From positions 8,047,079 through 8,111,078 of the forward strand of contig OZ316898.1 of the NCBI GenBank assembly GCA_973895155.1: 64,000 nt of DNA. The letters run 5' to 3'. Below, piece after piece: positions 41,300 through 64,000 of this stretch. The stretch's first letter is position 1; each line of letters starts with the position of its first letter. The notes below the pieces were generated by a model. It ran no database searches. It was not told the DNA's origin and saw only the letters and a list, made by a program, of their open reading frames with translations. The stretch is from Marsupella aquatica. Taxonomy: Eukaryota > Plantae > Marchantiophyta. The position numbers were made by a program, and so were the translations under genes.

Positions 41300-42497
41300 T
41301 GTCACACCATTCTGAGTAGTGTAGTAGTATATCGTGCTATTAGAGTATGTATGTTTGGTATGAGTGCTATTGGAGCCGATAAGGTTCTGTCAGGTTTGTG
41401 TGAGAGGGTACTTCTCACTTGTGAGGCATTGAAAGGTCATCTTTCAATGTTGAGCCTTGGAGAGAGAGGAGCTTGAGTGTGGCTATGGTGGCTGTGAGCT
41501 CCGCTTGTGTAACATGGATTCCTTGAGTAGTGCAAGGTGCGTTGGCTTGACATACGTGTGTGATCGGATCGGTGCGGGATCGATGGGGTATTGTTGACCG
41601 AGATCGTTGTGCCGATTGTATGGAGATTACATTGAAAGATCACATTCGAAATCTGTTGTACGGACTGTGCGGACAGAAGTTCGATTGATTGAGTTGTCGA
41701 CGGTTCGTGGTAGCTCGGATCGTGTGTTGTTATCGAACAGATCGTTGGTATCTTGACCTGTATCGTTGTTGTCCGATCGGCTTGCTTCCCGATCGATGTA
41801 CAGATCTGTGATTGGTGACAGGTTTTGAGTTGGAGGTCGATTGATGATTCGTGGAGGAAAGCGAATGTTGAGTAGATGTTGGACAGTGGAAGTCGATCCG
41901 TGAGGCTTCAGATCCGATTGCCGGCTACTGTGAGGCTTCAGATCTGATTGTCGGCTACTGTGGGGCTTCAGATCTGATTGCCGGCTATTGTTGGACGATG
42001 TTGGCAAGGCGCAGGTGAAGCGACGGCTCTTTTCCTGAAGGAACGGAGCTGCCAATGCCCCGTGCGACGGTATCATCGTTTCAGTGAAAGAAACGAGGGT
42101 CAAAGGTGTTTAATCAAGCTGCTGCCAGTTCTGTGGAAGGGCTGTGTTTTTCATGAAGGAAATCGACAGTTTTCGGGAGCTTTTCGTGAAGGAAGTAGTC
42201 ATTTTTGGGGTCAGGTGTGAGGCGCACAAGGTCATCCATCCCGAAAGTGCTCACGCGAGGCGACGCGTGAGGTCACCCATCCCGAAAGTGCTCCCAACCG
42301 CAAGCGCGAAGTCACCCATCGTGAGCGCAGGCAGGCGCGAGGTCAAGGTCACCCATCCCGGGGCTATTCCGGGCCGTGAGCGCGAGGGGAGGCACAAGGT
42401 CGAGCGCGAGGAGGTCACCCATCCTGGGTCTATTCCCGGCCGCGAGCGCTTAACTGGCAAGTTCTCATCCCACCTTGTGTACACACAAGCTTTGACA
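41300..42497 (-). mobile_element. LTR family B, copy 1 (1198 bp, solo-like)
   Basis: Termini TGTCA...TGACA. The first ~330 bp are near-identical to copy 2. Internal 30-bp x3 repeat (41900-41990) and GGTCACCCATCC repeats (42229-42425). Flanks TCTAT and ACTTG do not match. Orientation is inferred from the GGTGTGACA end; the right end is inferred from the inverted terminus only. Confidence 0.7.
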
Positions 42498-45400
42498 ACT
42501 TGTTGTTTAGATTCAAGCGCCAGGGGGCTTTATATACTTCCCGGTTTGTTTAGAGGCCTATTCTAGGCCAAATCAGAGGCTGTTTGAGGGTTTTTGATAC
42601 TTCTGAGTCCATCTAGACTCACAGATTGAACCAATTTTGCCTTGGTTCTCATCTACAACATTGGAGTGCCATTGTGAAGCCTATTATGAAGACTCTTCCT
42701 TGAACCTTATGCACATTGTCATATTGATTTGCATTTGCTTTTGTGTGGAGAGTTGAATGGTATCCATTCTTGTTTCTGGATCCTCTTCACACATGTTTCC
42801 TGTTTATGCGCCATGTTAGTTTCGTGTGGGCGCTTGATTCCATCGGAGTGATCCGGGTTTGCAACTGGACATTCTAGTGTGCTGTGTATTTCTCTCTTGG
42901 TGATGTTGGAGTGATGCCCAACACACCATGGTGAGTGCTTGTGGTGCTGACAGGGATAGATTGCCCTTAGGGTTAGCACATAGATTAGGTTAGGGTTGGT
43001 CACCACGGATTCCTCTGGTGCTGCTGGATTACCCGATGGACGACGGACCGGTTTCACTCGGAGTGGGGCACAGTTTCGGCCAGCGGCATTGGTAGCAGTC
43101 AGCAGTGCAGCTTCAGACAGTGATTCTGATGAGGACTCAGTGACCAGTTCTCCTCATCATCAGGTGGTTGCACCTTTGTTGTGGGATATGGACGAGATGT
43201 ACGGGGCTACAAAGGGCCCACGACGATACTCTGGTGCAGTTGGCACAATTGATCTGGATGACTTCATCCAGGAGTTTGATACGTGGTGCGATATGCAGAC
43301 ATTGCGTAATGTCACGTTGTTTACCCCTTTCATGGCATGGAAGGGATTATTCCAGCATTTGGAGGGGCCACCCATGGATGACTACCATGAGTTTCGGAAG
43401 GCTCATTTGGTTGAAATTGAGGCATGGAGGCAGCATTGGTCGCCTAATTACGTGTCCATCACCTATGGCACTAGTGCGGCTGCCCAACCAATTGCCACAG
43501 CTGCTGCTTCTTCTAGCAGCACTAGCTAGAGTGGCACACCATCCACCAGCAGCACTCCAGCAGCATCCACCACTACTCCTGCCAGTGTGATTGTGACGGG
43601 AACTGGAGTTGCGCCAGCATTTAATCCCGTGGTGGAATTCTTTGAGGTACTGAAGCAGAACTATCAGGGTGTGAGAACTGATAAGTTGAAGGGTCTTCAG
43701 GAGTTCCAACGCAAGACTGGAGAGAGCCTACGTGAGGCATACACACGTATGCGCAGATTGATCACTGTCACCAAGGGAGTGACAGAGGCTCAGGCAGTCC
43801 AGTTTTGGTATGCAATTCTGGACAGAGAATTGCGACGCAGAGTGAGAGATGTCACTCTGCTTAGGGATGCAGATCCCACATTAGCAGTTGTTTTCACCCT
43901 TTCTGAGCGCATTGAGCTCAATATGGTGAATGAGAAGGTGGTGACTTTCGGATTTGCCAAGGAAGCACCAAAGGCTGCATCTACATCCACACCACAGCCT
44001 ACTGCACGGAAGAGCCAGAGGGAGAAGCCTACTGCACGAGAGTCTACCAGCCAGAGACCTGTGCCCTCTTATGCTGGACAGCAGTCAGGATGCTGGACCT
44101 GTGGTGGGGATCATGCACAGAGATATTGTCCAGATCATAGAGGATCAGGGGGAGCATCAGCGCCTGATCAACGACAATGTGATCACTGTGGAGCTCCTGG
44201 ACACACCAAGGATAGGTGTTTCTCACTCCACCCTGAGTTACGGAGAGGAGGATCCCGTACACATGATCAGGGAAGAGGAGGAGGAGGTAGAGGTGGTGGA
44301 CGTGGTCGTGGCATGCCACATGCAGGGAGACAGGGAGGTGACGCTGCCCCTGCTGTAACCATAGATCCAAAGGATGCTAAGATTGCTCAATTAGAGCAAC
44401 AACTAGCTGCCATGGCTAGTTCCCAGGTGAGACCTAATTCTGGTGATGGAGCATCTACATCCTATGGACCTTCCACATCCCATGGTCCTTCCACATCTTA
44501 TGGAGCTGATGGAGACCTTGCCACCATGGGATTCATGTGTGGCACTACACATATTGATGCATCAGCAGCTTTGACACGTGGGGCAGCCAAAGCTCTTGAG
44601 CCCCGAGGAGCAGTAGTGGAGTTAGATCCACAAAGGGGGGATGCACGTCGGCAGACAAAGCTTCCTCAGTCTTTTACATTGTCAGAGACAATTCAGACTG
44701 CCTCTATGAACCCGGTTCGGACAAACCATGATGTGGGTAAGTTGGCAGAATCAGGTAGTGATGCAGCAGGGATGACATGTACCTTGCTGGGGGCGGCTAC
44801 TGCCATAGTACGCACCCCATTATTTTCAACGACAGACATGCTGAACTTGGGAGTTGGTCCTGCAGAAGTGTTCAGATTGGCAGCTACACTCTGTGAGGAC
44901 ACTCCAGTGGTTGCTTCCCATGCAGAAGCAACTTGTAGTGTTGATGCAGTGAAGACCATGCCACCTACTGCTACTAGTGAGACATGGCATGCAGCAGCAG
45001 CGAGGTTGGTGGATTTACCAGCACGCCCTGCATTTGAGAGGACTAGGTTTAAACCTAGTGTTGTGTCATTGGATAATCGGAGTGGTATCTTCCGATTAGT
45101 TGGGCCTTCTGGAGCAGTATACCAGCCAGAGAGAGTGTTACTGGATACTGGTGCTCAGCCCTTGATGTTGGGGAAGTCTGCCATATGTGGATTGGGATTG
45201 CGTCCAGAGGATTTGGAGGATTGTCCCTTTCCCATTCAGACTTCATTGGGGGGACCTACACCTACACAGCATATCACCAGGAGACCACTTGATTTGAGGA
45301 TTCAGGAAGGTCATACCACAGATAGCTCACAGATACAGGCGCGAGCTATTCTGACTAAGGTAGAGTCATATGATGTGTTGGTGGGATGTATAGTGCTCTA

Positions 45401-45851
45401 CCCCATGGGATTTATTCTTGATTTTTGGGAGGAATCAGTGTCATATAGACCTGATTGGCAGTCAGGAGATGCTCGATTGAGAAAATTGCCAGTGAGATTT
45501 AGTGGACCTGTGGGAGGCTCTAAATCCACACCATTGTCTTTGGCAGCATTCAATGGTGTAATTGCTGGACCTGATGATTTGATTGAGGGTAATGCGCATG
45601 CAGCCGATGTTCCACCATTGGAGGAGTCTCATGAGGAGCACATCATGCGAGGGTTACCTGTTGGCAGTGTTGTGCCACCAGTGTGGGGCACTGCACAAGC
45701 CTTGCCACAGGAGGCAGCACGATTGGTACATGATGCATGGCGTCATGCTTTTACACCACAGTCAGGAGTAGAGCAGTCTTTTGCAGATGGACCTGTGACT
45801 CTTTCACCATTGGATACCACTCCTATTGCTTGGCAATATCCACCGGAGGGT

Positions 45852-46800
45852 ATTTGTTTGTTGGATCTTTTTGGTGGGATTAGCACTGGATTGGCTGCTG
45901 TTCTTCAGGCAGGAATTCCTGTGCGTCGTTATTTATATGTGGAGACAGATGAGACAGCACGGAGGGTCTCATTGCGACATGTGGCTATGTTGGTGGATAG
46001 ATATCCACAGTTGCTACCAGTGGATGCTGTTCGTGATTATCAGCATGCACTACCTGCTGATATTTCATTGTTGGGGTGGATCATCTGCATCGTGTTGGCC
46101 CCATTGATTTGGTGATTGCTGGTTGGCCATGTCAGGGCCAATCTAGAGCTGGCGTTGGGCATGGACTTCATGATCCACGCTTTGCATTGTTTTGGGAGAT
46201 GTTACGGGTGCTGCGTCACCTCCAGCTACATCAGACACAGTCTCCAGCATACATTTTGGAGAATGTGCCATTGTTAGGTGATGATCGTAGTCGGATTGTT
46301 GCCAGTGTTCACCAGGTGAGGTCTTGGATTGGACCCGCTGTGTTATTGGATGCTGCACGTGTGGGTTCTTGTGCACATCGTCCACGCTTATGGTGGACTA
46401 ATTTGATCCCATGTGAGGTGCTGAAGCGCGCATTTGACAGCATTCCACGCTCACCAGCCTTAGTGGTGGATGATATTTTGGATCCAGGGCGTCGTGCACA
46501 GGGTGTGACCCAACCTGATAGACCTCCATTGGCAATGGTCAATGCAGTTGGGTGCCCACGTTGTGCATTACCCACTCTTGTAAGCCACTCTGCTTCATAT
46601 GCATTCAGAGCAGGTGGCCCTGGACTTGTATGGGACACAGCTCTCCAGCAGTTAGTGGAGCCTACTGCTGATGAGAGAGAGCGTGCTATGGGATTTTTGA
46701 CTGGCACCACTGCAGTTGCCTCTGTGTCAGAGGGTTTGCGGCGCCAGGTTCTTGGTCAAGCAATGGATTTGAATTGTTTGACTTGGATTATCAGCTTGGG
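45852..46800 (+). other. DNMT3-like C5 cytosine methyltransferase domain between protease and RT
   Basis: Motif I LLDLFGGISTG, II YVETD, III ADI, IV AGWPCQGQS (catalytic PC), VI ILENV, VIII AHRPRLWWTN, IX ERERAMGF, X RRQVLGQAMD, in non-permuted order. Confidence 0.92.
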
Positions 46801-49800
46801 AGTAGCTGAACAGTTGCGGATGCGCTCTGCCGGAATTACTGATTGTCCCTTGGTGAGCTTGCGGTCCACTAAGACAGTATTGACCACAGCTGGGGGCGAG
46901 CAGACAGTCCATGGACCTATGACAGGATTGGCAGCTGGACAGATTGTTGAGCAGGAAGAGACTGCTCAATCTACTGCTAAATAGCAATCATCGGCTATCT
47001 CTTCTACCCTACAAAGAGATATTAGGGAGTTGGTGGAGAGTTGGGAACCACAGCTTGGCCCTAAGTTAACAGGGGAGGAGAGACGTCGCATGCATCGATT
47101 CCTGAAGAGTTATTGGAATTGTTTTGCATTCAGCATGAAGGATTTGGGGACATTGAAGGGCACTGGTATTCAGATTGAATTGGCTAGTGATGCGCCAATC
47201 TTTCGTAGACCATACCGTTATAGTGACATGGAGAGAGCTCTGATTCAAAGCAGAACTCAAGATTTGTTGGAGGCTGGATTGGTGGAGATTTCATATGGGG
47301 AGTATGCATTTGCCACAGTGATGCCAGCCAAGAAGGATGTGCATGGCAATTACACAGATAGGCGCATGTGTGGTGATTACAGACCTATTAATCGCCAGAC
47401 AAAATCTGATCGATATGCCATGCCCACACCTGAGGAGATCTTTGATGCTGTGGGGCATGCAAAGGTTTTCAGTTCATTGGATCTGAGGGCAGGATACCAT
47501 CAGCTTCCAATTAGGCATGCTGACAGGTCCAAGACAACATTCTAGGGGATTGATTCTTATGGCAAAGATCATTTGTATCAATGGTTATTCTTACCATTTG
47601 GGTTGAAGAATGCACCAGCTGAGTTCCAAAGAGTCATGGATCGAATCCTTGCAGGTTTGGATTTTGTCAGATGTTATATTGATGATATTTTGGTCTATTC
47701 TTCTACTGTGGAAGAACATCAGCAGCACTTGCAGACTGTGTTGGAGAGATTGAGAGCACATGGGTTGAAGCTCCATCCTAGCAAGTGTAAGTTCTTCCAA
47801 GACCAGATTGAGTATTTGGGCCACACCATATACCCAGGGGGATTGGGTGTACAGCAGACTAAAGTGGAGGCCATTACACAGATTCCTTGTCCTACTGATG
47901 TGAGTAGAGTTCGTGCATTCTTGGGATTGGCGAGCTACTACAGGAGGTATGTTAAAGGATTTAGCCAGCTTGCTAAACCTTTGACCATACTCACTAAGTT
48001 GGATCAGGAATGGATTTGGGGTGATGACCAGGAGCATGCCTTTCAGGAGTTGAAGCAAAGGTTGACATCATCCCCTATTTTGAGAAGACCCATTTCAGGC
48101 AGACCATTTCAGCTACACACTGATTGGAGTGGAGTAGGACTTGGAGCAGTGCTGACTCAGAAGGATGATGAGGGGAATGAGTTTGTTGTGGCTTATGCCA
48201 GTAGATCAAACAATTCAGCAGAGGCTAAGTATAGCTCTTATGAGGGAGAGTGTTTGGCAGCAGTGTGGGCTGTTGCACACTTTCGTTGCTACTTGTTTGG
48301 TAACCCCTTCACCTTGATCACTGATCATCAGCCTCTTAAGTGGTTAATGGAGTCTGACAAGCTTACAGGGAAGCTTGCACGATGGGCATTGTTGTTACAG
48401 GAGTATGATTTCCAGGTGGTGCATAGGCCTGGAAAAGTGAACTTGGATGCAGATGGATTAAGCCGCAATCCATGTACCAGTCAGCAGGATGAGACTGGAG
48501 CCAGATGGCATGATGAGTCAGATAAGGAGATGGTGCCAGGATGGCATGCATCTGCCTTTCTTTGTTGGGTGCCAGCATACAGTGAATCTGTGGACTCTAC
48601 TTCATTGGATGGAGTGGGTGATGAGTCTTCAGATGTGGATGTTGGTGAGGTAACTTCTGGACAACAAGATATTCACAATGATGTGAGAGTGTTGGAATAT
48701 CTGCGCAGTGGTTCTATTGTTGGCAGTGTTGATGCCAAGGAACGTGACAGGGTTCTACAGAGAGCCAAGAGATTTTGATGGGAGGGAAACCATCTTTTGA
48801 GAGTACTGCATGATGGTAGGATGTTGGTGGTACCAAAACCATCACAACGAGTACATTTGGTGCGACATGCGCATGAGGAGTTGGGTCACTTTGGTGTGAA
48901 GCGCACTTACAGCTTGCTGCAGACACAGTATTGGTGGCGTGGTATGCACACTCATGTCCAACAGTTGATAGCTAAGTGTGTGGTATGTGATAGAGTGAGA
49001 GCATCATTTAATGCTCCCACTCCCCAGTTGCACCCGTTGCCGATCATGGGTTTGGGATATCGTTAGAGTTTGGATTTTGCTGGTCCATTACCTCTTACCC
49101 AACGTCATAATCGATATGTTTTGGTCATGGTGGAGCACTTCTCCAAGTGGATTGAGCTAGTGGCGTTGCTAGATAAAGCCAGTGGAGGAGTTGCTGCTAC
49201 ATTTTTGGATCGTGTACTCAGTCATTTTGGAGCACCAACTGAGGTGTTGACTGATCAAGGAACTGAGTTCCGTGGAGAGTTTGAGAGTTTGTGTGAACAA
49301 GCTCTGATTGATCATCGTACTACCTCTCGTGATCATCCTGAGGTAGATGGATTAGCTGAGAGAGTTGTGCAAACTGTGAAGAGAGGATTGCGTAAGTATG
49401 GCTTGCAGGTTGGTCATCTGGGAGATTGGGATCTCCAGCTACCTTGGTTAGCTATGGGCTACCGTTTCAGTCGGCAAGCATCACTTGCATCCTTCTCACC
49501 CTACTTTTTGCTCTATGGTAGAGAGCCAGATTTGCCAGCAACTATTCGTCGTCATGCTGCACCAGTTGTGAACTTGGATGATCCTGATGTTTGGGTCAAG
49601 GTGTGTTCAGAGAGAGCACGGGTATTTCAGAGAGTGATGCCCATGGCTTTTGACAACCTTGCCATTGCCCAACATCGTGATACTTTGAGGTATGCCACTA
49701 TTCGTGGAGGAGGTTACCGTGCAAGCATTCGACGATTTCATCCCGGTGATTATGTTTATTTGCAGCAGACAGCACCCACGACACTTGATGTGACCGCAGG

Positions 49801-49969
49801 CCGGACAATCTTACGTGTGCGTGAAGTGTTGCCTTCTGGTGTCCTGATGTTGGAGGGACGTGATGGTATGGTTTGGAAGGATCATGTGCGCAACTGTGCA
49901 CCATGTCACCTTCCCAACATTGATGGTACAGTAGATCCAAGCTTGGCACATGTTCGTGCTGGCTTGAAA

Positions 49970-50107
49970 TGTATGTTGTGTGGATCTGCTCAGGGAGCAG
50001 CTACTATGTTGATTTGTGATAAGTGTTCTAGAGGATGGCACATGTCATGTTTGACACCACCATTGCAGGTGATTCCTAGTGGATCATGGTTGTGTCCTCA
50101 GTGTCGG
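49970..50107 (+). other. PHD finger at the integrase C-terminus
   Basis: CMLC-x9-ICDKC-x4-HMSCLTPPLQVIPSGSWLCPQC, a complete C4HC3 pattern, in frame with integrase. Confidence 0.93.
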
Positions 50108-50270
50108 TGAAGCCGACTAGTTATCATTTGTGTTCTCTTGGCAGATATGGATTGCAGGTAGGTGATCGATGGGGCTCACTTGCACCCGGCCTCCTGATCT
50201 TCACACCTAAAAAGGTGTATATCAACCTTGTAGAACTCATGGCTAGCTAGAGTTAGGGGACCTTACTCCC

Positions 50271-50285
50271 AGTTAGGGGGGCGAT
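50271..50285 (+). other. polypurine tract of element A
   Basis: AGTTAGGGGGGCGAT immediately before TG at 50286. Confidence 0.75.
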
Positions 50286-50607
50286 TGTGGGTTTTGGACA
50301 TGTGTGGACATGAGTTCCACTTGTATTCCATTCTCTTGTATTTGTGATGTGGCAGTGTGACTATGTCTGGATGTATGTGACAAGCGATGTATGTTGTGTA
50401 GCGATATGTATGCGCACGACAGCTGTCACACCATTCTGAGTAGTGTAGTAGTATATCGTGCTATTAGAGTATGTACGTTTGGTATGAGTGCTATTGGAGC
50501 CGATAAGGTTCTGTCAGGTTTGTGTGAGAGGGTACTTCTCACTTGTGAGGCATTGAAAGGTCATCTTTCAATGTTGAGCCTTGGAGAGAGAGGAGCTTGA
50601 GTGTGGC

Positions 50608-53600
50608 TGTGATGCCTAGACAGGAATCACTCGGCCGGTTAAGTGGGTAAAGCAGGAAGGCACCCTAGGAACACCTTAGTATAGTGACAAAACAAGGAAA
50701 ATATAAACAATTAGGGGCAACCATGGAACCCGGGCCGAGGCCAAAGGTAAGGCTAAGGGTGAAAACCCGATTAGGGTTAGGGCGCGTTAAGCGTCGGCGG
50801 CTAGGAAGGATCAACGGGAAGAAGGACCGGCAGAGGAGAGGGGTAAGGAGCGCTTGCAGGAGATGGTGGCTCATTTGCGAGCACGAACTAGGCAGACGAC
50901 TACGGGAGGCCAACTACTGTCAGCTGCTTAGGCAAGCACTCGGGGAGAGAGTAGATACCGACGATCGACCTAAGGAGGGTATGAGCAACGTCAATCAAGC
51001 GGCACATTTCTGGGGATGCCTATTCGAACGGGAAACTGAGTACATCAAGACTTACGAGGACGAGGAGTCAGAAAGGGCAGCTCGAGAACGGCAGGAGCTC
51101 GCTCGATTGTGGGAGCTGCAGAAGACGGCTTTCTTAGGAGGCGAACTCATCAAGGACGAGTTTCTGTGGACGCCTACTTCCAATCAACTCGACGATCTTC
51201 TGTTTTGCAAAGACAGCGTCGTCGGCATCCGAGAGGCCATCAAGAACTGCAACGACATACACTGGGAATTAAAGGGTAGCACGGAAAGGTGGACCCAGGC
51301 AACGGTGCTAGGAGAAACCTCCACGGCAGCAGAGATGAAGAGGAAGGGAGCCGTCAACGATGAAGCCACCCCGGCAAAAAGAACGAGGTCGGCGGCACCA
51401 AAGAAGCCAGCCGAGCAGCAGAGCAGGAGGCAGGGAGAAGCCGAAGAGGAGGAGGTCGATCCCATCAAGGCCATTCCAACCAGGGATGACACCTGGAAGG
51501 GCTGGGCGGCAACCCTACCGGTGGAGGTGCAGCTACATTTTGCACGGGAGGAGGATGCATGCTTTACGGCCATGCAGACCAAGAAGTACCAAGGCTTCAT
51601 GGCCGGATCCGGCTTGGAGGCCTTTGTAAGATTACCATGGCTGAAGCCGGAGGTACCGGAGTCAGACCTATTAGAATTCGTGGGGTCATGGGAACCCGAG
51701 ACCAATTGCACGAGGATATATGGGAAGGATTTCTATCTTACTCCCAAGGTAATTGCCGAAGTGTTTGGCCTGCCGATAGGCAATAAGACCAAAGTTGATA
51801 CCAGGAAGACCTTGCCTGACAAGGAGTTCCGGTCGTTCCCCGGGCCATCAACGAAGAATGGCTTCTTCCGGAACACCTGCACCAACCCGCACATAGGAGA
51901 GATGATCGACTTCTTGCAGGTGACCATGCATTGTAACTTGCCGAGGGCAGAGATCGGCAAGGCACAGGTCTATCTGGCAGAAAGGCCAGACCCAAGCCGG
52001 GACTACAACGGGTACCTCCTCAACCAATTGAAGAAGATCTTAAAGGAGGAGCAGCAGGTAATCGGCATGGGGAGCGTGTCGCGGCTTGGCTATCACATGC
52101 CGCTGTTGTGCCGGTATGCCAGAGGTCAGACTTTTGCCCCGGTACTTCCCCTGCAGGTAAGGGCACCCGAGGAAGCTCCAACGCCGAGGCCGTTGGCTGA
52201 GAAGCCTCAACCACCTGTTAGTCCTACGATCGAGCAGGTGTTTAGGCCCAGGAAGGAAGACTTGCCGATGCAGCAACCAGGCATGCAGAGTCTACTGAAA
52301 CTACTGGAGAAAGAAAAGAAATCGGCATCGGCAACAACAACGGCAACGGCAACAATGCAGGACACTACTACAGAGGTAGGCCTACACTGGCTCACAAGAG
52401 AAAACCCCTTTGCTGGAGACAAGGAGAGAATCAGGCCGGAATCCAAGCTAGGTGTTCGAATGTACGTGGGAACCTCAAGCTCCGAATCTGAGGCAGAATT
52501 GCCTGAAGCTCCTACCGACGAAGAGGAGAGGGAGAAGCCGGACGTCCAAGAGGTAGAGGAGGCAGTGGAGGACTGCAGCCATGATAATTCCGGCTATGGG
52601 TCGGACCATCACATTCCAGGAGTAAGGACCTGTGGCCGGTTTGTCCCCACACTTCCAAGGGTAGTGCGAGGGGACCCCAACCAGCAGAGTAGCCCTGAGT
52701 CTCCCCCACCAGATGTTGCTCCCCCGAGCTTCGACGGCATAAAACAGACGGTGCAGGAATTTCAGGAGCGAATCAAGCAGGAGGAAGAGGCCGCCCTGGC
52801 TAAGGAAAAGGATTTACCAGGAGGAGATTGGCCGGAGGACATCAGGCGGCTAGCCGAAAAAGGAAGCAAACCTCTAGCCACGATTGAAGAGATCCGCAGG
52901 ATGGCTTGGGAGCAGAGGCCACGATGGGCGATGCCGATCACTTCTACTTACTCCACCTACGCTAAGAATAGAGCCATGGAGTATGGTGAGATGTGTGGGG
53001 AACTTGCGCTCGGCATCTTTGGAGAGGAGTTGGAGGTAGGACCCTTTTTCCATAGGGAGCAGTTGGAGAAGCACCAATTAGAAGAAGCGGTGGCTTTAGA
53101 GAGAAGCAAGAAGGACGAGGTCATTCGGCGGCTTAGGAGGATGGAAGCCGAGATTGAAGATCTAAGGGCGGCCAAGAAAGCCCAAGATGAACTGCGGATT
53201 AAACGACATGAGCTGAACATCATGCAAGGGCAATTGGACACCGCGCAGGCTGATAATCAGAATATCAAGGATAAACTGACTCAGACGCAGGAAGAGTTGG
53301 CCGACACGATCAAAGAGAGGGAGAAGTGGAAGCAAGAGCTGAAGAATACAGAGGAGGCCCACATAACAGCCAACAGCCGGGCCATGGCGGAGACCCAAAG
53401 AAAGGAATGGGCGTTGAAAGGGGAGCTCGAGAAAATCTGCGGAGCCCTTGAGCAGAAGGAGGTCGAGTTAGGGAAATCCTATCAAGGGATTATGGCGCTG
53501 CAGCAGGAGCTTGCGTCCCTGACGGCCAGCTTCAAGGCCGACCTAAGGGAGAAGGACGAGATGCTCGAACAGACTTACGCCAAGATGAACCAGATGGAGT

Positions 53601-55267
53601 CTGTCATCATTGCAGAGCTCGACAAGGAGCTAAGAGCAACCCGGGAGGAGAGGGCTACCTTGAAGAAGGAATTGGAGGAAGCCCACAGGGAGCAGGAGGA
53701 GGCCAAAAACGAGCTGGAGGGGGCACGTAAGGACCTGGATGAAACCCAAGAGGAATTGGAGGAAATCACGAGGAAGATGGAGAACCTACAGCGGCGGGCC
53801 GACAACCAAACAGAGCGGCTGAAGAAACAAGCCGCAGTATTTAAATGCTTAGCTGCAGCAGGTCCATCTCCCGTTGGGACAAACCAGTTACCAGGGGTGG
53901 TAATTGCCGAAGGACAAGCCGCGTCAACTGCACCAGTGCCGGAAGTAAGTGGGAAGGGGAAGGGACCAGCTGCCGAGCCACCAACGAAGAAGAAGCGGAA
54001 ACCTTCAGGGTCAAGGAGTAATACGACTTCACAGGCCGTGGTGATCAAGGAGGTAGACCCAGCACCGACCCCAGACAGGGTCACGGCTAAGGATCCAACT
54101 ACCCTAGGGGAAGGGGAGGCCGAAGCCAAGGGAGTGGCTGAAGCCGAAGCCGTGGGAGTGGCTGAGGCCGAAGCCGTGGGTATTGCCGAGGCCGGTGTCG
54201 AGGCTGAAGCCGAAGGTGGACCCAGTCAGGCCGATGGAGAGTTGACTCGGTCAAGGGCAGGTAATCTGTCAGTAGGCGGGCCAACGGCAGTGGCTGAGGA
54301 GGAAGTGTTGGGGGCGTCCATTGAGGATCCACCACCGGTGTCGTGACGGTGCAAGGGCGCCGTTCCTTTTAGGGAGGGCGGACGTGGAGGGAGGAGGCGT
54401 GAGTGGGCAGGGCGGGCGCGGATCTCCACGTTTAGGATTAGGATCAGAACCAGGAGCGGCCCTGACACTTAGCTTAGTGGGATTGCGGTCCCACTGGTAG
54501 GAGCAACACTTGTGCTCCTGCCTTGCTGTACATAGGTAGATTCGGGCAAGTAGATTACTGTCAGGTAGATTAGGCTTACGATGCAAAGAATGGCGGATCC
54601 ACTACCAGGATAAGTACCTAGGCAGCGGGGAGCTCAGGGCCTCTTCTTTAGCAAGTTTTTAGTTTGCACCAGCCGGGCTGGGATCAAGTAGTACGAGAAG
54701 CTCTCGGTTAGTCATACAGTGACCCTTGTGTATATTCATGTTTCCTCATGCCTAAGAGCTGAATAGAGTTGGCCTCACGGCTTAGTTCGCAGAACTTGTG
54801 TATGAGATGTACTGTTTGTATGGCAAGTGCATGGTATGACTCAGTCAGAATGAGTCATTTTGCTATTTGTGTGTCGCATTAACTTGTGTGAAGAGTGCCC
54901 ACATCAACAGAAGGAAGGAAAGTAAGCAGGGGAGTGAGAGTTGGATGTGTCGAGCTGAGAGAGGTCTTAGCGGCTTAACCAAGCCTATTGGGGATCATTC
55001 CGGCGGCGAAATCCAAACATACCTAACAAGACGGAGGGGAAGACAGGGGAAGACAGGGGAAGGCCTATATTAGGCCGGCTACGTATCTCATGACCCGATG
55101 AAGGATCTGTCCAGTATATGTGTGTAAAATGTTAATAGTAGTAGTAGAAGGTTAGCAGCGTCCCATGCCGCTAAGCCGCGGAAACGGCCTCGCCAAGCAC
55201 GAAACCTGCAGGAATCGGCTTGAGCTGGGGGGTTTCTTGGGTTTAGGGAGCCATGGGACGCACCACA
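50608..55267 (+). repeat. 5' LTR of element C (4660 bp)
   Basis: Both ends match the 3' LTR (offset 10884 before and 8561 after the deletion). Followed by the PBS. Confidence 0.93.
50684..54346 (+). CDS. LTR-encoded accessory protein (plant transposon-associated domain plus long coiled coil)
   Basis: Uninterrupted 1220-codon frame with in-frame ATGs at 50723 and 50981. LLEFVGSW...IYGKDFYLTPKVIAEVFGLP resembles plant mobile/transposon-protein motifs. About 280 aa of E/K/L heptads, NLS-like PTKKKRKP and (AEAVGV)n tail. Confidence 0.85.
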   Translation: MTKQGKYKQLGATMEPGPRPKVRLRVKTRLGLGRVKRRRLGRINGKKDRQRRGVRSACRRWWLICEHELGRRLREANYCQLLRQALGERVDTDDRPKEGMSNVNQAAHFWGCLFERETEYIKTYEDEESERAARERQELARLWELQKTAFLGGELIKDEFLWTPTSNQLDDLLFCKDSVVGIREAIKNCNDIHWELKGSTERWTQATVLGETSTAAEMKRKGAVNDEATPAKRTRSAAPKKPAEQQSRRQGEAEEEEVDPIKAIPTRDDTWKGWAATLPVEVQLHFAREEDACFTAMQTKKYQGFMAGSGLEAFVRLPWLKPEVPESDLLEFVGSWEPETNCTRIYGKDFYLTPKVIAEVFGLPIGNKTKVDTRKTLPDKEFRSFPGPSTKNGFFRNTCTNPHIGEMIDFLQVTMHCNLPRAEIGKAQVYLAERPDPSRDYNGYLLNQLKKILKEEQQVIGMGSVSRLGYHMPLLCRYARGQTFAPVLPLQVRAPEEAPTPRPLAEKPQPPVSPTIEQVFRPRKEDLPMQQPGMQSLLKLLEKEKKSASATTTATATMQDTTTEVGLHWLTRENPFAGDKERIRPESKLGVRMYVGTSSSESEAELPEAPTDEEEREKPDVQEVEEAVEDCSHDNSGYGSDHHIPGVRTCGRFVPTLPRVVRGDPNQQSSPESPPPDVAPPSFDGIKQTVQEFQERIKQEEEAALAKEKDLPGGDWPEDIRRLAEKGSKPLATIEEIRRMAWEQRPRWAMPITSTYSTYAKNRAMEYGEMCGELALGIFGEELEVGPFFHREQLEKHQLEEAVALERSKKDEVIRRLRRMEAEIEDLRAAKKAQDELRIKRHELNIMQGQLDTAQADNQNIKDKLTQTQEELADTIKEREKWKQELKNTEEAHITANSRAMAETQRKEWALKGELEKICGALEQKEVELGKSYQGIMALQQELASLTASFKADLREKDEMLEQTYAKMNQMESVIIAELDKELRATREERATLKKELEEAHREQEEAKNELEGARKDLDETQEELEEITRKMENLQRRADNQTERLKKQAAVFKCLAAAGPSPVGTNQLPGVVIAEGQAASTAPVPEVSGKGKGPAAEPPTKKKRKPSGSRSNTTSQAVVIKEVDPAPTPDRVTAKDPTTLGEGEAEAKGVAEAEAVGVAEAEAVGIAEAGVEAEAEGGPSQADGELTRSRAGNLSVGGPTAVAEEEVLGASIEDPPPVS

Positions 55268-55271
55268 TTTT

Positions 55272-55289
55272 TGGCGCTAGATGGAGGGG
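55272..55289 (+). other. primer binding site, tRNA-Asn type
   Basis: TGGCGCTAGATGGAGGGG, 4 nt after the LTR. It is complementary (one mismatch) to the plant tRNA-Asn 3' end ...CCCCUCCUUCUAGCGCCA as recalled from memory. Confidence 0.8.
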
Positions 55290-55426
55290 GCATTTCTTAA
55301 GCCGTGAGATATGAAGTTAGAACGGAAGCGTAGGTAATGACTGACCTTACGCCGAGGGAAGAAAGAGTGATTCAACGGGAGAGAGCTCGACTGCAGTAGC
55401 TCGCCGGGTGGCATGATACACAGCGA

Positions 55427-58330
55427 GTGAGAGGGGCAGAAAGAGCTGGTAGCTCCGAAACTGGAAGTGGCGTCGAAGAAGACATACCAGAAGAAGAGTC
55501 GGTAAGGAGAAGTGAGTCTCCAACCGACATGGGGGAACCAGAGGCACGGCCAGACCAGAGGCCAGGGACCAGATTGAGCCAGCGGTCGCGCATACATTAC
55601 AAGGCATTTCATGGGAGAGGAGATGAGGATCCGGACGAATGGTTGGATGATTTCGAGGGAACCGCTGCAGCAAATGGAGAATCGGCCATCAAGATGCAGA
55701 TTCTTCCCGGCCTGTTCAAGGGTGAGGCTAGGCCTTGGTACAGAGCATTAGATGTGGAAGATCAAGCCATCTGGGATATCTTCAAAACACTCTTTGTTAA
55801 GGAGTTTCGACCCATTGGAACTTCAGAACTAGCAGTGCTGAAGTTGGGACAACTTCGGTTCAAGGAGAACAAATCCTTCAGGAAGTTCTTGCAACGCTTT
55901 CAGAAACTGGTAAGACGTACAAAGACCAATGCATCTGAAGGTATGCAACTTCAATGGTTGGTGAATGCTTTGCCACAGAAGATGAGTTTTGCAATTAGGA
56001 AGGAGAACCCGGAGACTTTAGCCGAAGCAATTAAGGATATTCAATTATACATTAATGCAGATATCACAAGCCGGAAGAAACAGCTTAAGTCTGAGAGTTC
56101 CTCATCAGAGGAGGGATCACCCCATAAGAAAAAAGATAAGAAGAAGAAACATTCCAAGAAGTCTAGAAGTGATAAGTCAAGCTCGAATAGTGGGAGTAGC
56201 AAGAGTGAGTCATCTTCTAGTTCTGAAGAAGAAAAAACTAGGAAAAGGAAGGGCAGAAGGAGAGGGAAGACGAAAGTCAAGATGGAGGCTAAGCCACCAG
56301 ATAACATCGTAGCCCTTACCGAGCAACTTAAGGCTATCATTGCAGAGGTAAAACCAAAGAAGAAGGTAGTACAGGAGGATAGCTCTGTATGGTGTGCCTT
56401 ATGTTATAAAACCGGACACCATAAAGATGCGTGTCCTAAGCTTAATACTAATCATGTTCGGCATGTGACCGAGATCAGACCATGTCAGGGAGAAGTAGAG
56501 TACTTTTTGGGAGATGCCGCTGATAGTGTTTTCGGCATCAGTGAGACTGGAGCACGAGACCTATCCAACAGACCTGCATCTCTGTGGTCAGGGTTAAGGA
56601 ACAATCCAGGAGAGATGTATCCTCGGATTATTCAGAACCCGTCAGTACCTCCTAGGCCGAATGTGCAAAGATTTGCGGCGTGCTATAATTGTGGTCAACC
56701 TGGCCATTTTGCTAGAGAATGCCCGAATGCACGCAAACAGGGTGATGGACAACCAGCTCAGCTATGTATGGGATGCCGACAGGAAGGTCATATGCTAGGG
56801 CAATGTCCTACTTGGTTGGCAGGCCTGGCCGCAAATCATAAGCTTTTGCCGATCAAGATCTTACCGCCAGGTACTACCCCCGGAGGAGTTCAAATCAACC
56901 ACATCGAACTAGGATGGCAAGAGGATGCCGAGGCAGAGTTCGTACCATCTGATGATGAGGCCGAAGCCCTATCAACCTTCTCAGAGGAGGATTTAGATCA
57001 TGATTGCTACCGGGTCTCTACTCGATCTACCAGAAGGAAGGAAAGGTGGGATGGGCTGGCCAAAAATAAAGGGAAGGTTACGGAGGAAAGGATCAACTCT
57101 TCGTCAACATCAACAGAAGGAGTAGGGAGGGCTCCGGCAATACAGGTAAGCCATGAGCCCACCAGTGAAACCAATCCTTCACAAGATAGCGACTTCAATC
57201 GAGATCATCCTAAGTTGTTCTACCCCTCTGTTACGGCTAGTGTTAAGGAACAACTAAGAGAATTAGAAACCCTGGAGAATACCGAAGCCATTGCCAAGGA
57301 TGTAAAACGAGCAAAAGCATTGTTTGCTTCGGAAGACCCAACAGCTGTGGAGACTAGCGTGGCAAAACTGGCCGAATCCAAGACGGAAACACCACCAGAA
57401 GAGAAGCCGATTGTTCCCTATGACCTGGCTAAAGATGTACTAGAATCTAGAGTCTCGGCAACAGTAGGTCAACTATTGAAAAATAGCCCGTACTTCCGGA
57501 AGCAATTAAGGAAGGCTATTCTCGGCAAGCCGAGATTACCCAAGGTAGCAACCAGATCCGACGTACTAATGATAGAAGAAGATCAAGGAGCCCCAGCATT
57601 ACCATTAATGATTCAAGGAGAATTATTACTACGGGTACCCATCGATGGAGGATCAGGGGTATGTATTATGATTGATTCAACAGCAAAAGGGTGGGGTCTA
57701 ACACCGGAGATGACTGGAAGAGTGTTGAACATGGCCAATGGATATCAGGTCATTCCGACGGGAGTGTTAACCGGCATCAAGACAGAGATAGGAGGTATCT
57801 TCTTTAGCATTAACTATGTAGTAATGAAGCCGGTAAATCCTACGTCATTCCGGCTATTGATTGGTAGGCCATGGCTGTACCTAGCCGAGGTAATAGAAGA
57901 TTGGGGTAAAAAGCAGTTCACTTTCGGGACCCCCTCTATCACGGTATCCTGGGACACTAAGGATGACCGTAGGAAAAGCATAAGGGAAGTAGATGGGTAC
58001 GACAGTGGACTGGAGTCAGCCGATGAAGTACGTTGGTTAGAATGCCTCACTAACCTAACCGAAGAAGGTGTCTTTGAACCAGAGGTACCCCCCAGCGGAT
58101 TATGGCAAGAACCAATGGAAGGTGACTTGGAAGAAGAAGACGAAGAGGTCGAGGACTGCTTTACAATAGAATCCACCTTTTTAGCTGCAATTCCGGAGGA
58201 AGTAAAGGATGTAGACCAATTGGATGAAACGGCTAAGTGGGGAGCAGTAGCAGGGACAGTGGATTTTCTGCAGGCGTTGTGGCAGAGCCGACGGGGTCCA
58301 CAACGCCATCGATCATCGGCAAGGAATTAA
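55427..58330 (+). CDS. gag: Gag-protease of element C
   Basis: Capsid-like FHGRGDEDPDEWLDDF...KGEARPWY, Ser/Lys-rich linker, three CCHC knuckles and aspartic protease PIDGGSG...LLIGRPWL. True start uncertain (first in-frame ATG at 55529). Confidence 0.92.
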   Translation: MRGAERAGSSETGSGVEEDIPEEESVRRSESPTDMGEPEARPDQRPGTRLSQRSRIHYKAFHGRGDEDPDEWLDDFEGTAAANGESAIKMQILPGLFKGEARPWYRALDVEDQAIWDIFKTLFVKEFRPIGTSELAVLKLGQLRFKENKSFRKFLQRFQKLVRRTKTNASEGMQLQWLVNALPQKMSFAIRKENPETLAEAIKDIQLYINADITSRKKQLKSESSSSEEGSPHKKKDKKKKHSKKSRSDKSSSNSGSSKSESSSSSEEEKTRKRKGRRRGKTKVKMEAKPPDNIVALTEQLKAIIAEVKPKKKVVQEDSSVWCALCYKTGHHKDACPKLNTNHVRHVTEIRPCQGEVEYFLGDAADSVFGISETGARDLSNRPASLWSGLRNNPGEMYPRIIQNPSVPPRPNVQRFAACYNCGQPGHFARECPNARKQGDGQPAQLCMGCRQEGHMLGQCPTWLAGLAANHKLLPIKILPPGTTPGGVQINHIELGWQEDAEAEFVPSDDEAEALSTFSEEDLDHDCYRVSTRSTRRKERWDGLAKNKGKVTEERINSSSTSTEGVGRAPAIQVSHEPTSETNPSQDSDFNRDHPKLFYPSVTASVKEQLRELETLENTEAIAKDVKRAKALFASEDPTAVETSVAKLAESKTETPPEEKPIVPYDLAKDVLESRVSATVGQLLKNSPYFRKQLRKAILGKPRLPKVATRSDVLMIEEDQGAPALPLMIQGELLLRVPIDGGSGVCIMIDSTAKGWGLTPEMTGRVLNMANGYQVIPTGVLTGIKTEIGGIFFSINYVVMKPVNPTSFRLLIGRPWLYLAEVIEDWGKKQFTFGTPSITVSWDTKDDRRKSIREVDGYDSGLESADEVRWLECLTNLTEEGVFEPEVPPSGLWQEPMEGDLEEEDEEVEDCFTIESTFLAAIPEEVKDVDQLDETAKWGAVAGTVDFLQALWQSRRGPQRHRSSARN

Positions 58331-61300
58331 ATACCAAGGGATCGGCATACAAGCCGATTACGAGGGCAGAACAAATTGAGGCCCTATTAGAAGCCGAGAG
58401 AGCACAGCGGCCTAACTCTCAGGAGCAAGAGGTGGATGAGATGGACAGACACGATCTAGAGCCAAGGCAGGAAGGGGAGCCGACCACTAATTCAAAACCG
58501 AATAGACCGGTAAGGGGACAATCTATGGACACCAAGGAAGGGACCGACTCGGCTAGTCCAGCCGAAATCCCAGTTTATGGAGGTATGAGATTAGAGAGAC
58601 TGGAAGCCGAACTGGACCCGAATTTGAAGAAGCAGATTAATATGATCCAAGCACGGCAATATCGGAAGCTCGACTTAGGAGAGGGAAGAGAACTGAACTT
58701 AGGGAGAAACCTAGCACCTGAGCTCGAGAAAGAGATCAGTGACTTATTGATTGAATTTCAGGATGTGTTTGCATGGAGTCACCAAGATCTAAAGGGAGTA
58801 GATCCAACACTAGGGGAACATCGAATTGATCTCATGTTAGGAGCCAAATCATTTCGACAACCAATTCGAAGGATGAACCCGAAGTATTCCCTGCTGGTCA
58901 AAACAGAAATCGACAAACTAGTGGAAGCTGGATTCATCACTCCAGTCCTGCATTCAGACTGGGTGTCTCCAATTGTGATAGTTCCCAAGAAAGCTGGACC
59001 CGATGGTAAACCCAAGATCCGGGTTTGTCAGGATTACAGGAAGCTGAATGAAGCAACATTAAAAGACCATTTTCCTTTACCGTTTACTGATATGGTACTA
59101 GACATGGTAGCCAGTCATGAACTATATTCATTCATGGATGGATACTCTGGTTATAACCAAATCAGGATTCGGCAGGAAGACCAAATCAAGACGGCCTTCA
59201 TCACGGAATGGGGGATCTATGTCTTCAATCGTATGCCGTTTGGACTCTGCAACGCACCAGCTATGTTCCAACGATTAATGGTGAACATTTTTCATGATTA
59301 CTTGAGAAAGTTCATGGAAATCTTCATTGATGACTTTGCAGTATTCGGGAAGGCATCGAAACATGCTAAATACCTCAGGAAAACCTTCATGAGATGTAGA
59401 GAGGTGGGTCTCAAGTTACACCCAGATAAATGTTTTTTTGCAGTAACCGAGGGGGTGCTACTAGGTCACAAGGTATCAAGGAAGGGCATTGAGATTGACA
59501 AAGGTAAGCTAGCAGTATGGCTAGATATCATGCAACCTAAGAACATAAAGGATGTAAGATCCTTCTTGGGATGCATTGGTTACTATCGCCGGTTCATCAA
59601 GGATTTTGCCAAGATGGCTTTACCATTAACCAATATGCTCAAGGCAGGAGCAGACTTCGAACCCACACCCGAACGAGTCACAACGGTGGTAGAATTGAAG
59701 CAGATGTTAGTAGAGGCCCCAGTCATGATAGCACCGGACTGGAACAAAGATTTTCATGTTTTTGTAGATGTCTCGGGCTTCTGTATTGGCTCAGTACTAA
59801 GTCAGTTGGATGAGAAAGGAAGGGACCATCCCATATACTTCGCAAGCCGTCAGCTTGCCGATGCCGAACGGAACTACTCTACCACGGAAAGAGAAGCATT
59901 AGGAGTCATTTATTCTTGTAAAAAGTTTAGGCATTATTTACTAGGGTACAAGGTAATCTTTCATACTGATCATGAAAGTTTGAAGTACCTAGTCAATAAG
60001 CCGGACCTTACAGGCAGAGTAGCAAGATGGATTTTGCTATTACAGGAGTTTGACTATGAGCTGAGGATCAAGCCGGGAAAGTTACATGCCAATGCCGACT
60101 TCTTTTCAAGGATCACAGGTAAACCTGCCACGGATTGCATCGATGATCGATTCCCCGACGAGGAGCTATTCGTTGTGGAAATAGCTGGTACATGGTACCC
60201 TGAGATTTTACAATTTCTCAGCACTTCCAGATTACAGCCAGGATTAAGCCGAGAGCAAGCCGTAGTCTTTGTGCGGAAGGTCAGACAGTATCAGTGCATT
60301 AAAGGCATACTGCACAAGCATGGAATCAACGGCACGATTCAAAGATGTTTGGAAAAGAGAGAGGTCAAACGAGTCCTACGGGCCATGCATGGAGAGGAGG
60401 CCGGAGGACATTTTGCCCCAGTAACCACGTCTAAGAAGATATTAAATGCCGGTTACTGGTGGCCCACCTTGCACAAAGATGTCTATCAGTTTATCAAACA
60501 ATGCGATCCTTGTCAACGAGCGGGAGGACCAAGGGCGTCCACCAGGCATCCACTGCACCCTATTCTACCTCTGGCACCATTCGAGAAGTGGGGTATTGAT
60601 TACATTGGACCTCTGAAACCACTGACCCACCCTCGACGGAACAAGTACATAATCCTGGCTACGGATTATGCAACTAAATGGGTAGAGGCCAGACCAACAA
60701 CGAAGGATGATGCAATTACTACGGCTAGATTCATGTATGAGCAGATCTTCACCAGGTATGGAGCACCCCTAGAATTAGTTAGTGATAGAGGAACCCATTT
60801 TTTGAATGATATAATTAGTCGTTTAAATGAGCAGTATTTAGTTAAACATAGGCCTACTACTCCCTACCATCCAAAGGCAAACGGGTTGACAGAACGAGCA
60901 AACGGAATCATAGGAAAGATATTGAACAAGACAGTAGCTCAGAACAAACTCGATTGGGATGATAAATTGTTTGCTGCTATTTTTGCTTACAATCTTGCCT
61001 ATAAATCCACTACCGGTCATACACCCTTCTTCTTAACCTTTGGACAAGAAGCCCTGGTACCCATGCAACTTGAGATACCGACATTTCAAGTTACAATTGA
61101 GGAAAGAGCCTCAGCGGAGGAGAGCCTAAAGGAGCGAGAATATAGGTTAGAAGCTTTAGAGGAAGCGAGAATGATTTCAGCCGAGAGAGTAGAATATAGA
61201 CAGAATATCATGAAGCAGCAGTATGATAAAAGGTTAAAAGTAGTTAGTATTCATACCGGTGATCTTGTGCTACTTTATGACAGTAGGTATAGTAGGTTTC

Positions 61301-61503
61301 CAGGAAAGCTTTACACTCGCTGGTTAGGACCCTTTAGAGTAACCATGATGTTCCCCAATGGCTCCGTACAATTGGCCAACATTACGGGAGAGGTATATCC
61401 AGTTCGCATCCATTATGACCGCCTCAAGAAATACTATATGGACGAAGATGAAGTTGTTCGCGAGGACGCTTCACAATTAAGTGGGGAGCTATGTGATGCC
61501 TAG
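58237..61503 (+). CDS. pol: Pol (RT-RNaseH-integrase) of element C, in the -1 frame relative to Gag-PR
   Basis: WVSPIVIVPKK, CQDYRKLN, MDGYSGYNQ, MPFGLCNAP, FIDDF, RNase H (VDVS, EREALG, TDH, NADFFSR), integrase HH-CC, WGIDY, SDRGTHF, GLTER and WLGPF. No stops. Confidence 0.96.
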   Translation: MGSSSRDSGFSAGVVAEPTGSTTPSIIGKELNTKGSAYKPITRAEQIEALLEAERAQRPNSQEQEVDEMDRHDLEPRQEGEPTTNSKPNRPVRGQSMDTKEGTDSASPAEIPVYGGMRLERLEAELDPNLKKQINMIQARQYRKLDLGEGRELNLGRNLAPELEKEISDLLIEFQDVFAWSHQDLKGVDPTLGEHRIDLMLGAKSFRQPIRRMNPKYSLLVKTEIDKLVEAGFITPVLHSDWVSPIVIVPKKAGPDGKPKIRVCQDYRKLNEATLKDHFPLPFTDMVLDMVASHELYSFMDGYSGYNQIRIRQEDQIKTAFITEWGIYVFNRMPFGLCNAPAMFQRLMVNIFHDYLRKFMEIFIDDFAVFGKASKHAKYLRKTFMRCREVGLKLHPDKCFFAVTEGVLLGHKVSRKGIEIDKGKLAVWLDIMQPKNIKDVRSFLGCIGYYRRFIKDFAKMALPLTNMLKAGADFEPTPERVTTVVELKQMLVEAPVMIAPDWNKDFHVFVDVSGFCIGSVLSQLDEKGRDHPIYFASRQLADAERNYSTTEREALGVIYSCKKFRHYLLGYKVIFHTDHESLKYLVNKPDLTGRVARWILLLQEFDYELRIKPGKLHANADFFSRITGKPATDCIDDRFPDEELFVVEIAGTWYPEILQFLSTSRLQPGLSREQAVVFVRKVRQYQCIKGILHKHGINGTIQRCLEKREVKRVLRAMHGEEAGGHFAPVTTSKKILNAGYWWPTLHKDVYQFIKQCDPCQRAGGPRASTRHPLHPILPLAPFEKWGIDYIGPLKPLTHPRRNKYIILATDYATKWVEARPTTKDDAITTARFMYEQIFTRYGAPLELVSDRGTHFLNDIISRLNEQYLVKHRPTTPYHPKANGLTERANGIIGKILNKTVAQNKLDWDDKLFAAIFAYNLAYKSTTGHTPFFLTFGQEALVPMQLEIPTFQVTIEERASAEESLKEREYRLEALEEARMISAERVEYRQNIMKQQYDKRLKVVSIHTGDLVLLYDSRYSRFPGKLYTRWLGPFRVTMMFPNGSVQLANITGEVYPVRIHYDRLKKYYMDEDEVVREDASQLSGELCDA
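58261..58320 (+). promoter_or_regulatory. predicted -1 programmed ribosomal frameshift signal (G_GAU_UUU plus H-type pseudoknot)
   Basis: Correctly phased heptamer 58261-58267, 5-nt spacer, perfect 10-bp stem GGCGTTGTGG (58273-58282) / CCACAACGCC (58298-58307), and loop GCCGA (58287-58291) complementary to TCGGC (58316-58320). Confidence 0.82.
61479..61491 (+). other. polypurine tract of element C, inside the pol reading frame
   Basis: AAGTGGGGAGCTA immediately before TG at 61492. Confidence 0.8.
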
Positions 61504-63828: not shown

Positions 63829-63980
63829 GTGGCTATGGTGGCTGTGAGCTCCGCTTGTGTAACGTGGATTCCTTGAGTAGTGCAAGGTGCGTTGGCTTGA
63901 CATACGTGTGTGATCGGATCGGTGCGGGATCGATGGGGTATTGTTGACCGAGATCGTTGTGCCGATTGTATGGAGATTAT

Positions 63981-64000
63981 TGTGGGTTTTGGACATGTGT
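63981..64000 (+). mobile_element. start of another family A LTR (runs off the window)
   Basis: TGTGGGTTTTGGACATGTGT is identical to 50286-50305. Confidence 0.75.

Follow-up and report, generated by a model that had tools for sequence, protein, structure and literature searches.

A liverwort Gypsy-type retrotransposon that encodes its own DNMT3-like DNA methyltransferase ahead of a conserved, predicted readthrough stop

A 64,000-nucleotide (nt) stretch of the genome of the liverwort Marsupella aquatica (contig OZ316898.1; hereafter the window, meaning the whole stretch analysed) carries a Gypsy-type retrotransposon, a dead copy, whose coding region includes a DNMT3-like DNA methyltransferase. 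Phylogenetic analysis places this element in the Gypsy-DNMT3 clade already known from Klebsormidium (2018), as a variant with predicted readthrough; it is set apart by its land-plant host and by a conserved stop codon after the methyltransferase. Our preferred account, to which we give a probability of roughly 60%, is that this element of the clade has a first open reading frame (ORF1) encoding Gag, protease and DNMT and a second (ORF2) reached by readthrough, and that the enzyme would be packaged and methylate the element's cDNA.

Pfam matches and translations give the domain order, from 5' to 3' on the forward strand, as Gag, protease, C5 methyltransferase, reverse transcriptase (RT), RNase H, integrase and PHD finger. 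The Gypsy domain set of protease, RT, RNase H and DDE integrase is thus present; the aspartic protease (45090..45480) matches Asp_protease_2 at E 0.016, under the cut-off of that family, its LLDTG is visible in the translation and it forms a confident block (residues 85-227) in the structural model of a relative, P0001, described below. Downstream of the methyltransferase, Pfam recovered RVT_1, RNase H, Integrase_H2C2, rve and, at the C-terminus of the integrase, PHD (49970..50104; PF00628, E 3.6e-11), for which the nearest solved PHD fingers are those of CHD4, DPF3, ATXR5 and KMT2D. ORF1 (43188..46984, about 1265 codons) is broken by a stop at 43527 and by a single frame change near 46075, and ends at a stop at 46982; ORF2 (46985..50110), which encodes RT, RNase H, integrase and PHD, lies in frame with ORF1 and carries stops at 47543, 48776 and 49064. 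Since the contigs of other copies part from the window at 46073/46076, where they have loose ends, the frame break is likely specific to the window copy. An earlier note on this DNA had read the region from Gag to PHD as one frame with a missing G near 46075 and point stops; the frame change was found, but the stop at 46982 proved to be conserved and to divide ORF1 from ORF2. Similarly, the extent of 42996..50110 given there encloses the coding domains, whereas the terminal repeats of the element reach from 41300 to at least 64000.

The methyltransferase (45840..46831) has motifs I, IV, VI, VIII, IX and X in the normal, non-permuted order, with FGG at 45870, PCQ (including the catalytic cysteine) at 46130, ENV at 46259, AHRPR at 46373, ERxxGF at about 46680 and LGQAMD at 46751, and its C-terminal piece alone matches PF00145 with E 5e-10 and 39.7 bits (cut-off 22), in agreement with the earlier proposal of a complete enzyme between protease and RT. 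Among 273 stored proteins matching the DNMT, 203 contain the full domain, and in these the catalytic cysteine (197/203), the glutamate of ENV (202/203) and each arginine of RxR (199/203) are nearly invariant. In sequence searches against solved structures, DNMT3A/B came top (E ~1e-11), ahead of the rearranged plant enzymes (4e-7 or weaker) and HaeIII. Structural comparisons were made on the AlphaFold2 model of P0001, which is 82% identical to the window enzyme and has confidence (pLDDT) values mostly of 80-97 within the DNMT domain. The best fold match was again the catalytic domain of human DNMT3A/3B (Foldseek E 1.5e-17; Z 28.3, root-mean-square deviation 2.6 over 273 aligned residues, 24-27% identity), whereas a bacterial CpG enzyme reached Z 25.7 and HhaI 24.8, and model residues 345-670 are collinear with DNMT3A 630-909 and not in the circularly permuted order of DRM. 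On sequence matches and modelled fold, the enzyme is therefore classed as DNMT3-like and non-permuted, as had been suggested. It differs from human DNMT3A/3B in having no PWWP or ADD domain and in its target-recognition region, which is longer and divergent, so that the specificity of the enzyme cannot be read from it. Low-confidence linkers (residues 233-285 and 678-726) flank the domain in the model. We assign no donor, a phage enzyme being about equally close by sequence: the C5 methyltransferase of Pseudomonas phage Epa40 (L020, 400-1206) has DNMT3-style motifs, is 28-31% identical to the element enzyme and is as near to the element family as human DNMT3A.

The enzyme is a trait of a family. 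Its C-terminal piece retrieved 88 longer homologous proteins among 6703 candidates, the named ones coming from Marchantia (up to 68% identity), Calypogeia (67%), Sphagnum (53%) and Klebsormidium (39%), and family relatives were also found in Coleochaete and Closterium; in a 50% library, 2152 clusters matched at E 0.001, and 171 did so at 1e-30. In four sequencing runs (including X1 and X2), read depth over 45800-47700 was the same in DNMT and RT bins, and the family is high-copy in the host liverwort; the summed depth in run X1, ~1-4 x 10^5, is not a copy number. The family loci number 13 (L001-L012 and L015). Six further candidates (L013, L014 and L016-L019) were dropped as weak prokaryote-type matches, and viral contigs yielded no family locus. 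Between the window and nine metagenome loci, the ratio of non-synonymous to synonymous substitution rates (dN/dS) in the DNMT was 0.15-0.21 in nine of ten pairs (dS 1.4-1.8; the tenth, with L005, was saturated), and in RT-RNase H it was 0.12-0.16 in three pairs; by this measure the DNMT is under purifying selection, and neither a one-off capture nor neutral evolution, which the earlier note had named as refuting outcomes, fits. A host methyltransferase gene captured once by the window copy and now decaying neutrally would match the broken state of that copy, but this explanation is refuted by the 88 homologues and 171 clusters, by the equal depth of DNMT and RT and by the trees, in which the architecture groups of DNMT and RT agree.

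The DNMT tree (FastTree, family members only, 137 of 204 rows after redundancy filtering) joined the window enzyme with P0001 (support 99) and then with liverwort proteins (100), within a 17-row group (82) that has no fused member. In the RT-RNase H tree (quick IQ-TREE, 80 of 160 sequences, with only four outgroup rows), the window grouped successively with Calypogeia and Marchantia (100), a Coleochaete transcript (96), L015 (100), and Klebsormidium P0362 and Closterium (93), the last node being a clade of 19 rows with an SH-aLRT support of 93. The suspected kinship with Klebsormidium elements, in a streptophyte lineage, is thereby supported. Elements with the order RT-RNase H-DNMT-integrase formed one clade in the RT tree (100) and fell within one group of the DNMT tree (90). 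This large metagenomic clade, including P0056, P0082, P0109 and P0137, has the DNMT between RNase H and integrase, followed by PHD, and comprises 65 rows in the DNMT tree and 39 in the RT tree, where it is monophyletic; this implies that the DNMT domain moved within the polyprotein. In the RT tree the DNMT clade does not include P0416, a Gypsy polyprotein with a precomputed match to PF05869 (adenine methylase) and a PHD finger. L015 (1-9285) is a contig filed under a cyanobacterial assembly, its ORF2 being deposited as cyanobacterial protein P0433, and is likely mis-binned plant DNA.

Comparison with KnitGypsy-Dnmt3 of Klebsormidium nitens, as described in the available passages of de Mendoza et al. 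(2018; PMC5890265), reveals a common plan: a Gypsy domain set, a non-permuted DNMT3-like domain, DIRS-like repeats in the order A-coding-B-A-B, and purifying selection. The Klebsormidium protein P0362 (protease-DNMT-RT-integrase) is 47% identical to the window element in DNMT and 46% in RT-RNase H. The two differ in host, the window element being in a land plant, and in the placing of the DNMT, which in KnitGypsy-Dnmt3 lies in the Pol ORF (P0362 is annotated as fused) and here ends ORF1 at a conserved UAG-CAA; in place of the uninterrupted ORF of DNMT and RT that characterizes KnitGypsy-Dnmt3 in the strict sense, the window and all seven loci that span the junction have an in-frame stop. In those passages of PMC5890265, readthrough, a missing primer site and a junction palindrome are not mentioned for KnitGypsy-Dnmt3. 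We found no description of a land-plant occurrence or of readthrough for these elements in the literature, with subscription journals and Repbase outside the coverage; in the parts seen, PMC12344493 and 10.64898/2026.05.21.726589 speak of 'streptophytes', and bryophytes may be within their figures or supplements. A term search of the accessible text of PMC13468544, PMC10508981, 10.1101/2024.09.22.614159 and PMC7466625 returned no relevant methyltransferase passage, and the passages available from 10.1101/2021.02.12.428880 treat the host gene MpDNMT3b alone.

The stop at 46982 lies in the context AAA-UAG-CAA-UCA (46979..46990). The plant type I (tobamovirus) readthrough signal, as set out in the portions of PMC2754532 and PMC3159437 available to us, is UAG-CAR-YYA with 5' adenines, and in plants the tobacco mosaic virus context gave 6-32% readthrough; the window junction shares the UAG, the CAR-YYA and the adenines at -1 and -2, which makes it a predicted type I site known here from its sequence. 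The element has 2189 in-frame codon pairs, of which 11 are CARYYA, and none of these directly follows any of its four other internal stops. Seven of the family loci cover the ORF1/ORF2 junction: a stop is present in all seven, RT lies downstream in the frame of the stop in six, and CAA comes next in six, the junction reading UAG-CAA-CCC in L004, L007, L008 and L010. With the window included, CAA is found at seven of eight junctions and the full CARYYA at two (the window and L015), both 5' adenines being present in the window. L015 is an uninterrupted distant relative (identity to the window element 28% in Gag, 52% in DNMT and 65% in Pol) with an open ORF1 of at least 1162 amino acids (aa), UAG-CAA-UCA, and an open in-frame ORF2 of 1047 aa. 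Given the type I context, the stop in all seven spanning loci and the open frames on either side of it in L015, we take this stop to be programmed and not a product of decay, and consider it very probable that ORF2 is made by the predicted readthrough.

Protein catalogues accord with such a division. Five uninterrupted ORF1 copies of Marchantia polymorpha (Mp4g09160, Mp5g06330, Mp5g06860, MpVg00370 and MpVg00540; 1278-1281 aa) and many other proteins of 1274-1351 aa end shortly past the DNMT, 79 of 87 stored proteins with protease and DNMT have neither RT nor integrase (a redundant set that includes fragments), and many ORF2 proteins stand alone, at about 1030-1080 aa. Fusion of DNMT to RT is seen in Klebsormidium P0362, Closterium P0385 and several other proteins, so the junction stop marks a sub-clade. 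Five NCBI models joining DNMT to RT (P0007, P0009, P0012, P0030 and P0041) were judged to be spliced predictions, as the junction residues are missing from them. The likely reading is thus that ORF1 encodes Gag-protease-DNMT, with RT-RNase H-integrase-PHD made by readthrough. The enzyme had previously been expected to be cleaved from Pol; with the DNMT closing ORF1 and RT and integrase lying beyond the conserved UAG-CAA, it would instead be produced at Gag-level amounts.

Splicing, a subgenomic RNA or re-initiation might instead yield the ORF2 product with no readthrough at all, the DNMT remaining in ORF1. In Ogre elements an intron separates gag-pro from rt. An ATG two codons past the stop in L002, L004, L007, L008 and L010, and a Coleochaete transcript with a stand-alone, Met-starting ORF2 of 1083 aa, speak for such a route; no ATG is present at that place in the window or L015, however, and the first in-frame Met of the window lies 36 codons further along. 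A single in-frame stop makes up the junction, with nothing resembling an intron between the two frames, and the window and L015, distant elements with different flanking codons, share all 9 nt of the signal. We therefore regard expression without readthrough as distinctly unlikely and retain readthrough. SIRE1 is known for readthrough between pol and env. Unlike the stops of murine leukaemia virus gag-pol and SIRE1 pol-env, that of the present element sits after Gag-protease-DNMT and before RT.

The synonymous sites of the element are strongly depleted of CpG: NCG was used in 22 of 275 NCR codons (control 0.52), and C preceded G at 9 of 190 sites (control 0.43). The corresponding figures for a Gypsy element without DNMT, nested in the same window, were 66 of 214 (control 0.29) and 45 of 81 (control 0.50), and the two elements differed at Fisher p 1e-10 (NCG) and 3e-20 (C before G). 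Host exons were near the CpG controls, and CWG is largely spared in the element. None of the 13 near-fixed differences of the window copy (among the 40 of 299 variant rows listed) is a lost CpG, and the CpG loss was therefore inherited.

The ends of the element are unusual for Gypsy. Repeat A1 (41300..41629) starts with TGTC, has TCTAT on its left flank and is followed by a 5' leader (41630..43187) with short internal repeats. Downstream of the coding region lie a conserved non-coding motif with a hairpin just 5' of a G-rich polypurine tract (50168..50284), repeat B1 (50285..50421, ending in GACA) and the first part of repeat A2 (50424..50607), which is split by the nested Gypsy (50608..63828; 5-nt target duplication GTGGC); the target duplication and the remainder of A2 (63829..63979) and the start of B2 (63980..64000), 21 nt identical to the start of B1, complete the order A-coding-B-A-B, all on the forward strand. 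A1 and A2 differ at only 2 of 330 nt, so the insertion is fairly young. The B1/A2 junction (50418..50427) is a 10-nt palindrome, GACA-GC-TGTC, and the general form GACA-NN-TGTC is perfect at three of four junctions (window, L015 and L008, the central pair of L008 being changed on both sides) and imperfect in L010. The 3' motif and hairpin recur in L008, L010 and L015, with a change on both sides at 2 of 24 predicted pairs in the four-sequence alignment, and are a candidate primer or packaging signal. No Rfam match was found in 41200-50700, no tRNA gene within the window, and no convincing self-priming complement, the best being 11-14 nt. The left flank of L011 and the right flank of L008 both read TGTGT; the end of L011 is altered, these contigs are linked only via a 2988-nt identical overlap, and the right end of the window copy lies outside the window.

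An ordinary long terminal repeat (LTR) layout altered by tandem insertion or recombination, with standard tRNA-primed replication, might account for the B-A-B end, all the more as just 21 nt of B2 are inside the window and as the circular assembly of L015 is the collapse expected of any repeat-ended element (for which reason we dropped it as a sign of circular DNA). Yet complete B-A-B ends occur again in L008 and L010, a lone A precedes gag in L011, B and A are joined likewise in L015, and KnitGypsy-Dnmt3 has a matching layout in the passages cited above; moreover, the canonical Ty3/Gypsy pattern of two like LTRs and a TGG-type tRNA primer site is seen in the nested Gypsy, whereas neither the window element nor L011 has such a site after A. 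An ordinary LTR layout is thus very improbable, and we keep to DIRS-like split repeats. DIRS-order elements, including SymbioDIRS-Dnmt3, share with our element the A-coding-B-A-B repeats and, as far as the accessible part of PMC5890265 describes them, a retroelement-borne DNMT3; they have a tyrosine recombinase where the present element has a DDE integrase, protease and polypurine tract, and the Pfam matches of seven element pieces included rve and the H2C2 integrase and no tyrosine recombinase family. Troyka elements (PMC12440569, from the text available), with CG..CG termini and animal hosts, were ruled out, the present element ending in TGTC..GACA.

In the mechanism that we propose, most ribosomes would stop at the UAG and yield Gag-protease-DNMT, and a minority would go on to make the complete polyprotein. 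Each particle would contain many copies of the enzyme, in capsid stoichiometry; the enzyme, freed by the protease at the flexible linkers, would methylate new cDNA before insertion, most likely at CG. More tentatively, the internal B/A junction may template both element ends as in DIRS/PAT elements, CA-3' ends might arise when the integrase opens the GACA-NN-TGTC palindrome, and the PHD finger could read histone H3 tails and so direct integration. Staggered cutting behind each CA would give the kind of ends joined by integrases in established retroviral chemistry. It is possible, if doubtful, that these elements form a distinct class of green-lineage retroelements, with no tRNA primer site, DIRS-like split repeats, a DDE integrase opening the palindromic junction of circular or end-extended cDNA, a capsid-DNMT3 fusion that CG-methylates cDNA in the particle, and a pre-marked, PHD-guided landing.

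Several observations weigh against the account as a whole. The dS values behind the selection estimates (1.3-1.8) are near saturation, and dN/dS among decayed copies is 0.33-0.91. At the junction, L005 has two tandem stops and L002 reads UAA-CAA-CCC, the five moss-like loci have CAA-CCC in place of the full CARYYA, followed by an in-frame ATG that permits re-initiation, and no consistent stable RNA structure was found 3' of the stop in six sequences (z -0.35 to -2.28). Nor does the account explain how the internal junction would avoid being cut by the integrase. The within-genome CpG contrast relies on one control element, the nested Gypsy, and CpG loss is only mild in the uninterrupted L015 (0.48 versus 0.69; 0.36 versus 0.46) and in L005, which means that strong CG self-methylation is not a feature of the whole family. 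According to the available passages of PMC5890265, the Klebsormidium enzyme gave no activity in yeast, a result its authors called inconclusive. The last two points, and the loss of both CG and CWG in decayed moss-like loci, which is as expected from host methylation, would also suit an active enzyme directed at RNA, at the insertion site or at host chromatin, or else a non-catalytic nucleic-acid-binding module, the CpG loss then arising from host methylation or selection. We hold this to be unlikely: the catalytic residues are nearly invariant across the 203 homologues, the Gypsy without DNMT in the same genome shows no such CpG loss, and related SymbioDIRS DNMT3 enzymes carry out de novo CG methylation (PMC5890265, same passages). 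Methylation of the element's own cDNA remains our preferred reading.

The surroundings of the element point to a liverwort host, likely a leafy one, and so remove the algal host that the earlier note had named as a refuting case. A host exon at 20432-20989 is closest to Calypogeia fissa (76% over 90% of its length), followed by Marchantia (55%) and, over shorter parts, mosses and angiosperms (20 matches); on the forward strand, 20480-27170 is occupied by a host gene with several exons, whose product is of the 'iron-sulfur cluster biosynthesis family protein' type found in plants. On the minus strand, 1-14000 holds a multi-intron host gene with motifs of the RNA polymerase second-largest subunit, likely that of Pol III. 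An AT-rich array at 35579-36267 comprises about six units of 112-116 nt, 66-81% identical, with a short inverted motif in each. The nested Gypsy is young, its LTRs differing at 8 of 2335 aligned nt, and encodes Gag-protease (55400-58330) and RT-integrase (58237-61503) in different frames. Its 5' LTR of 4660 nt holds an open frame of 1225 codons (50669-54346) that belongs to no Pfam family and for which an Atlas search gave only leads below 0.9; about 2.3 kb of this frame is missing from the 3' LTR.

Since 2018 it has been asked how a transposon benefits from a cytosine methyltransferase of its own; an answer was held back by the lack of genetics in the known hosts and by the absence of activity in yeast for the Klebsormidium enzyme. 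With the uninterrupted ORF1 copies of Marchantia polymorpha, self-methylation can be addressed in a model plant for which methylation mutants exist. From the conserved stop one would predict that capsid rather than polymerase amounts of the enzyme are required, and from the repeats an unusual route of priming and integration for an element with a DDE integrase. As these loci are annotated as hypothetical genes, with gene models that appear to be spliced across the stop, inventories of bryophyte DNMTs may miss or miscount these enzymes.

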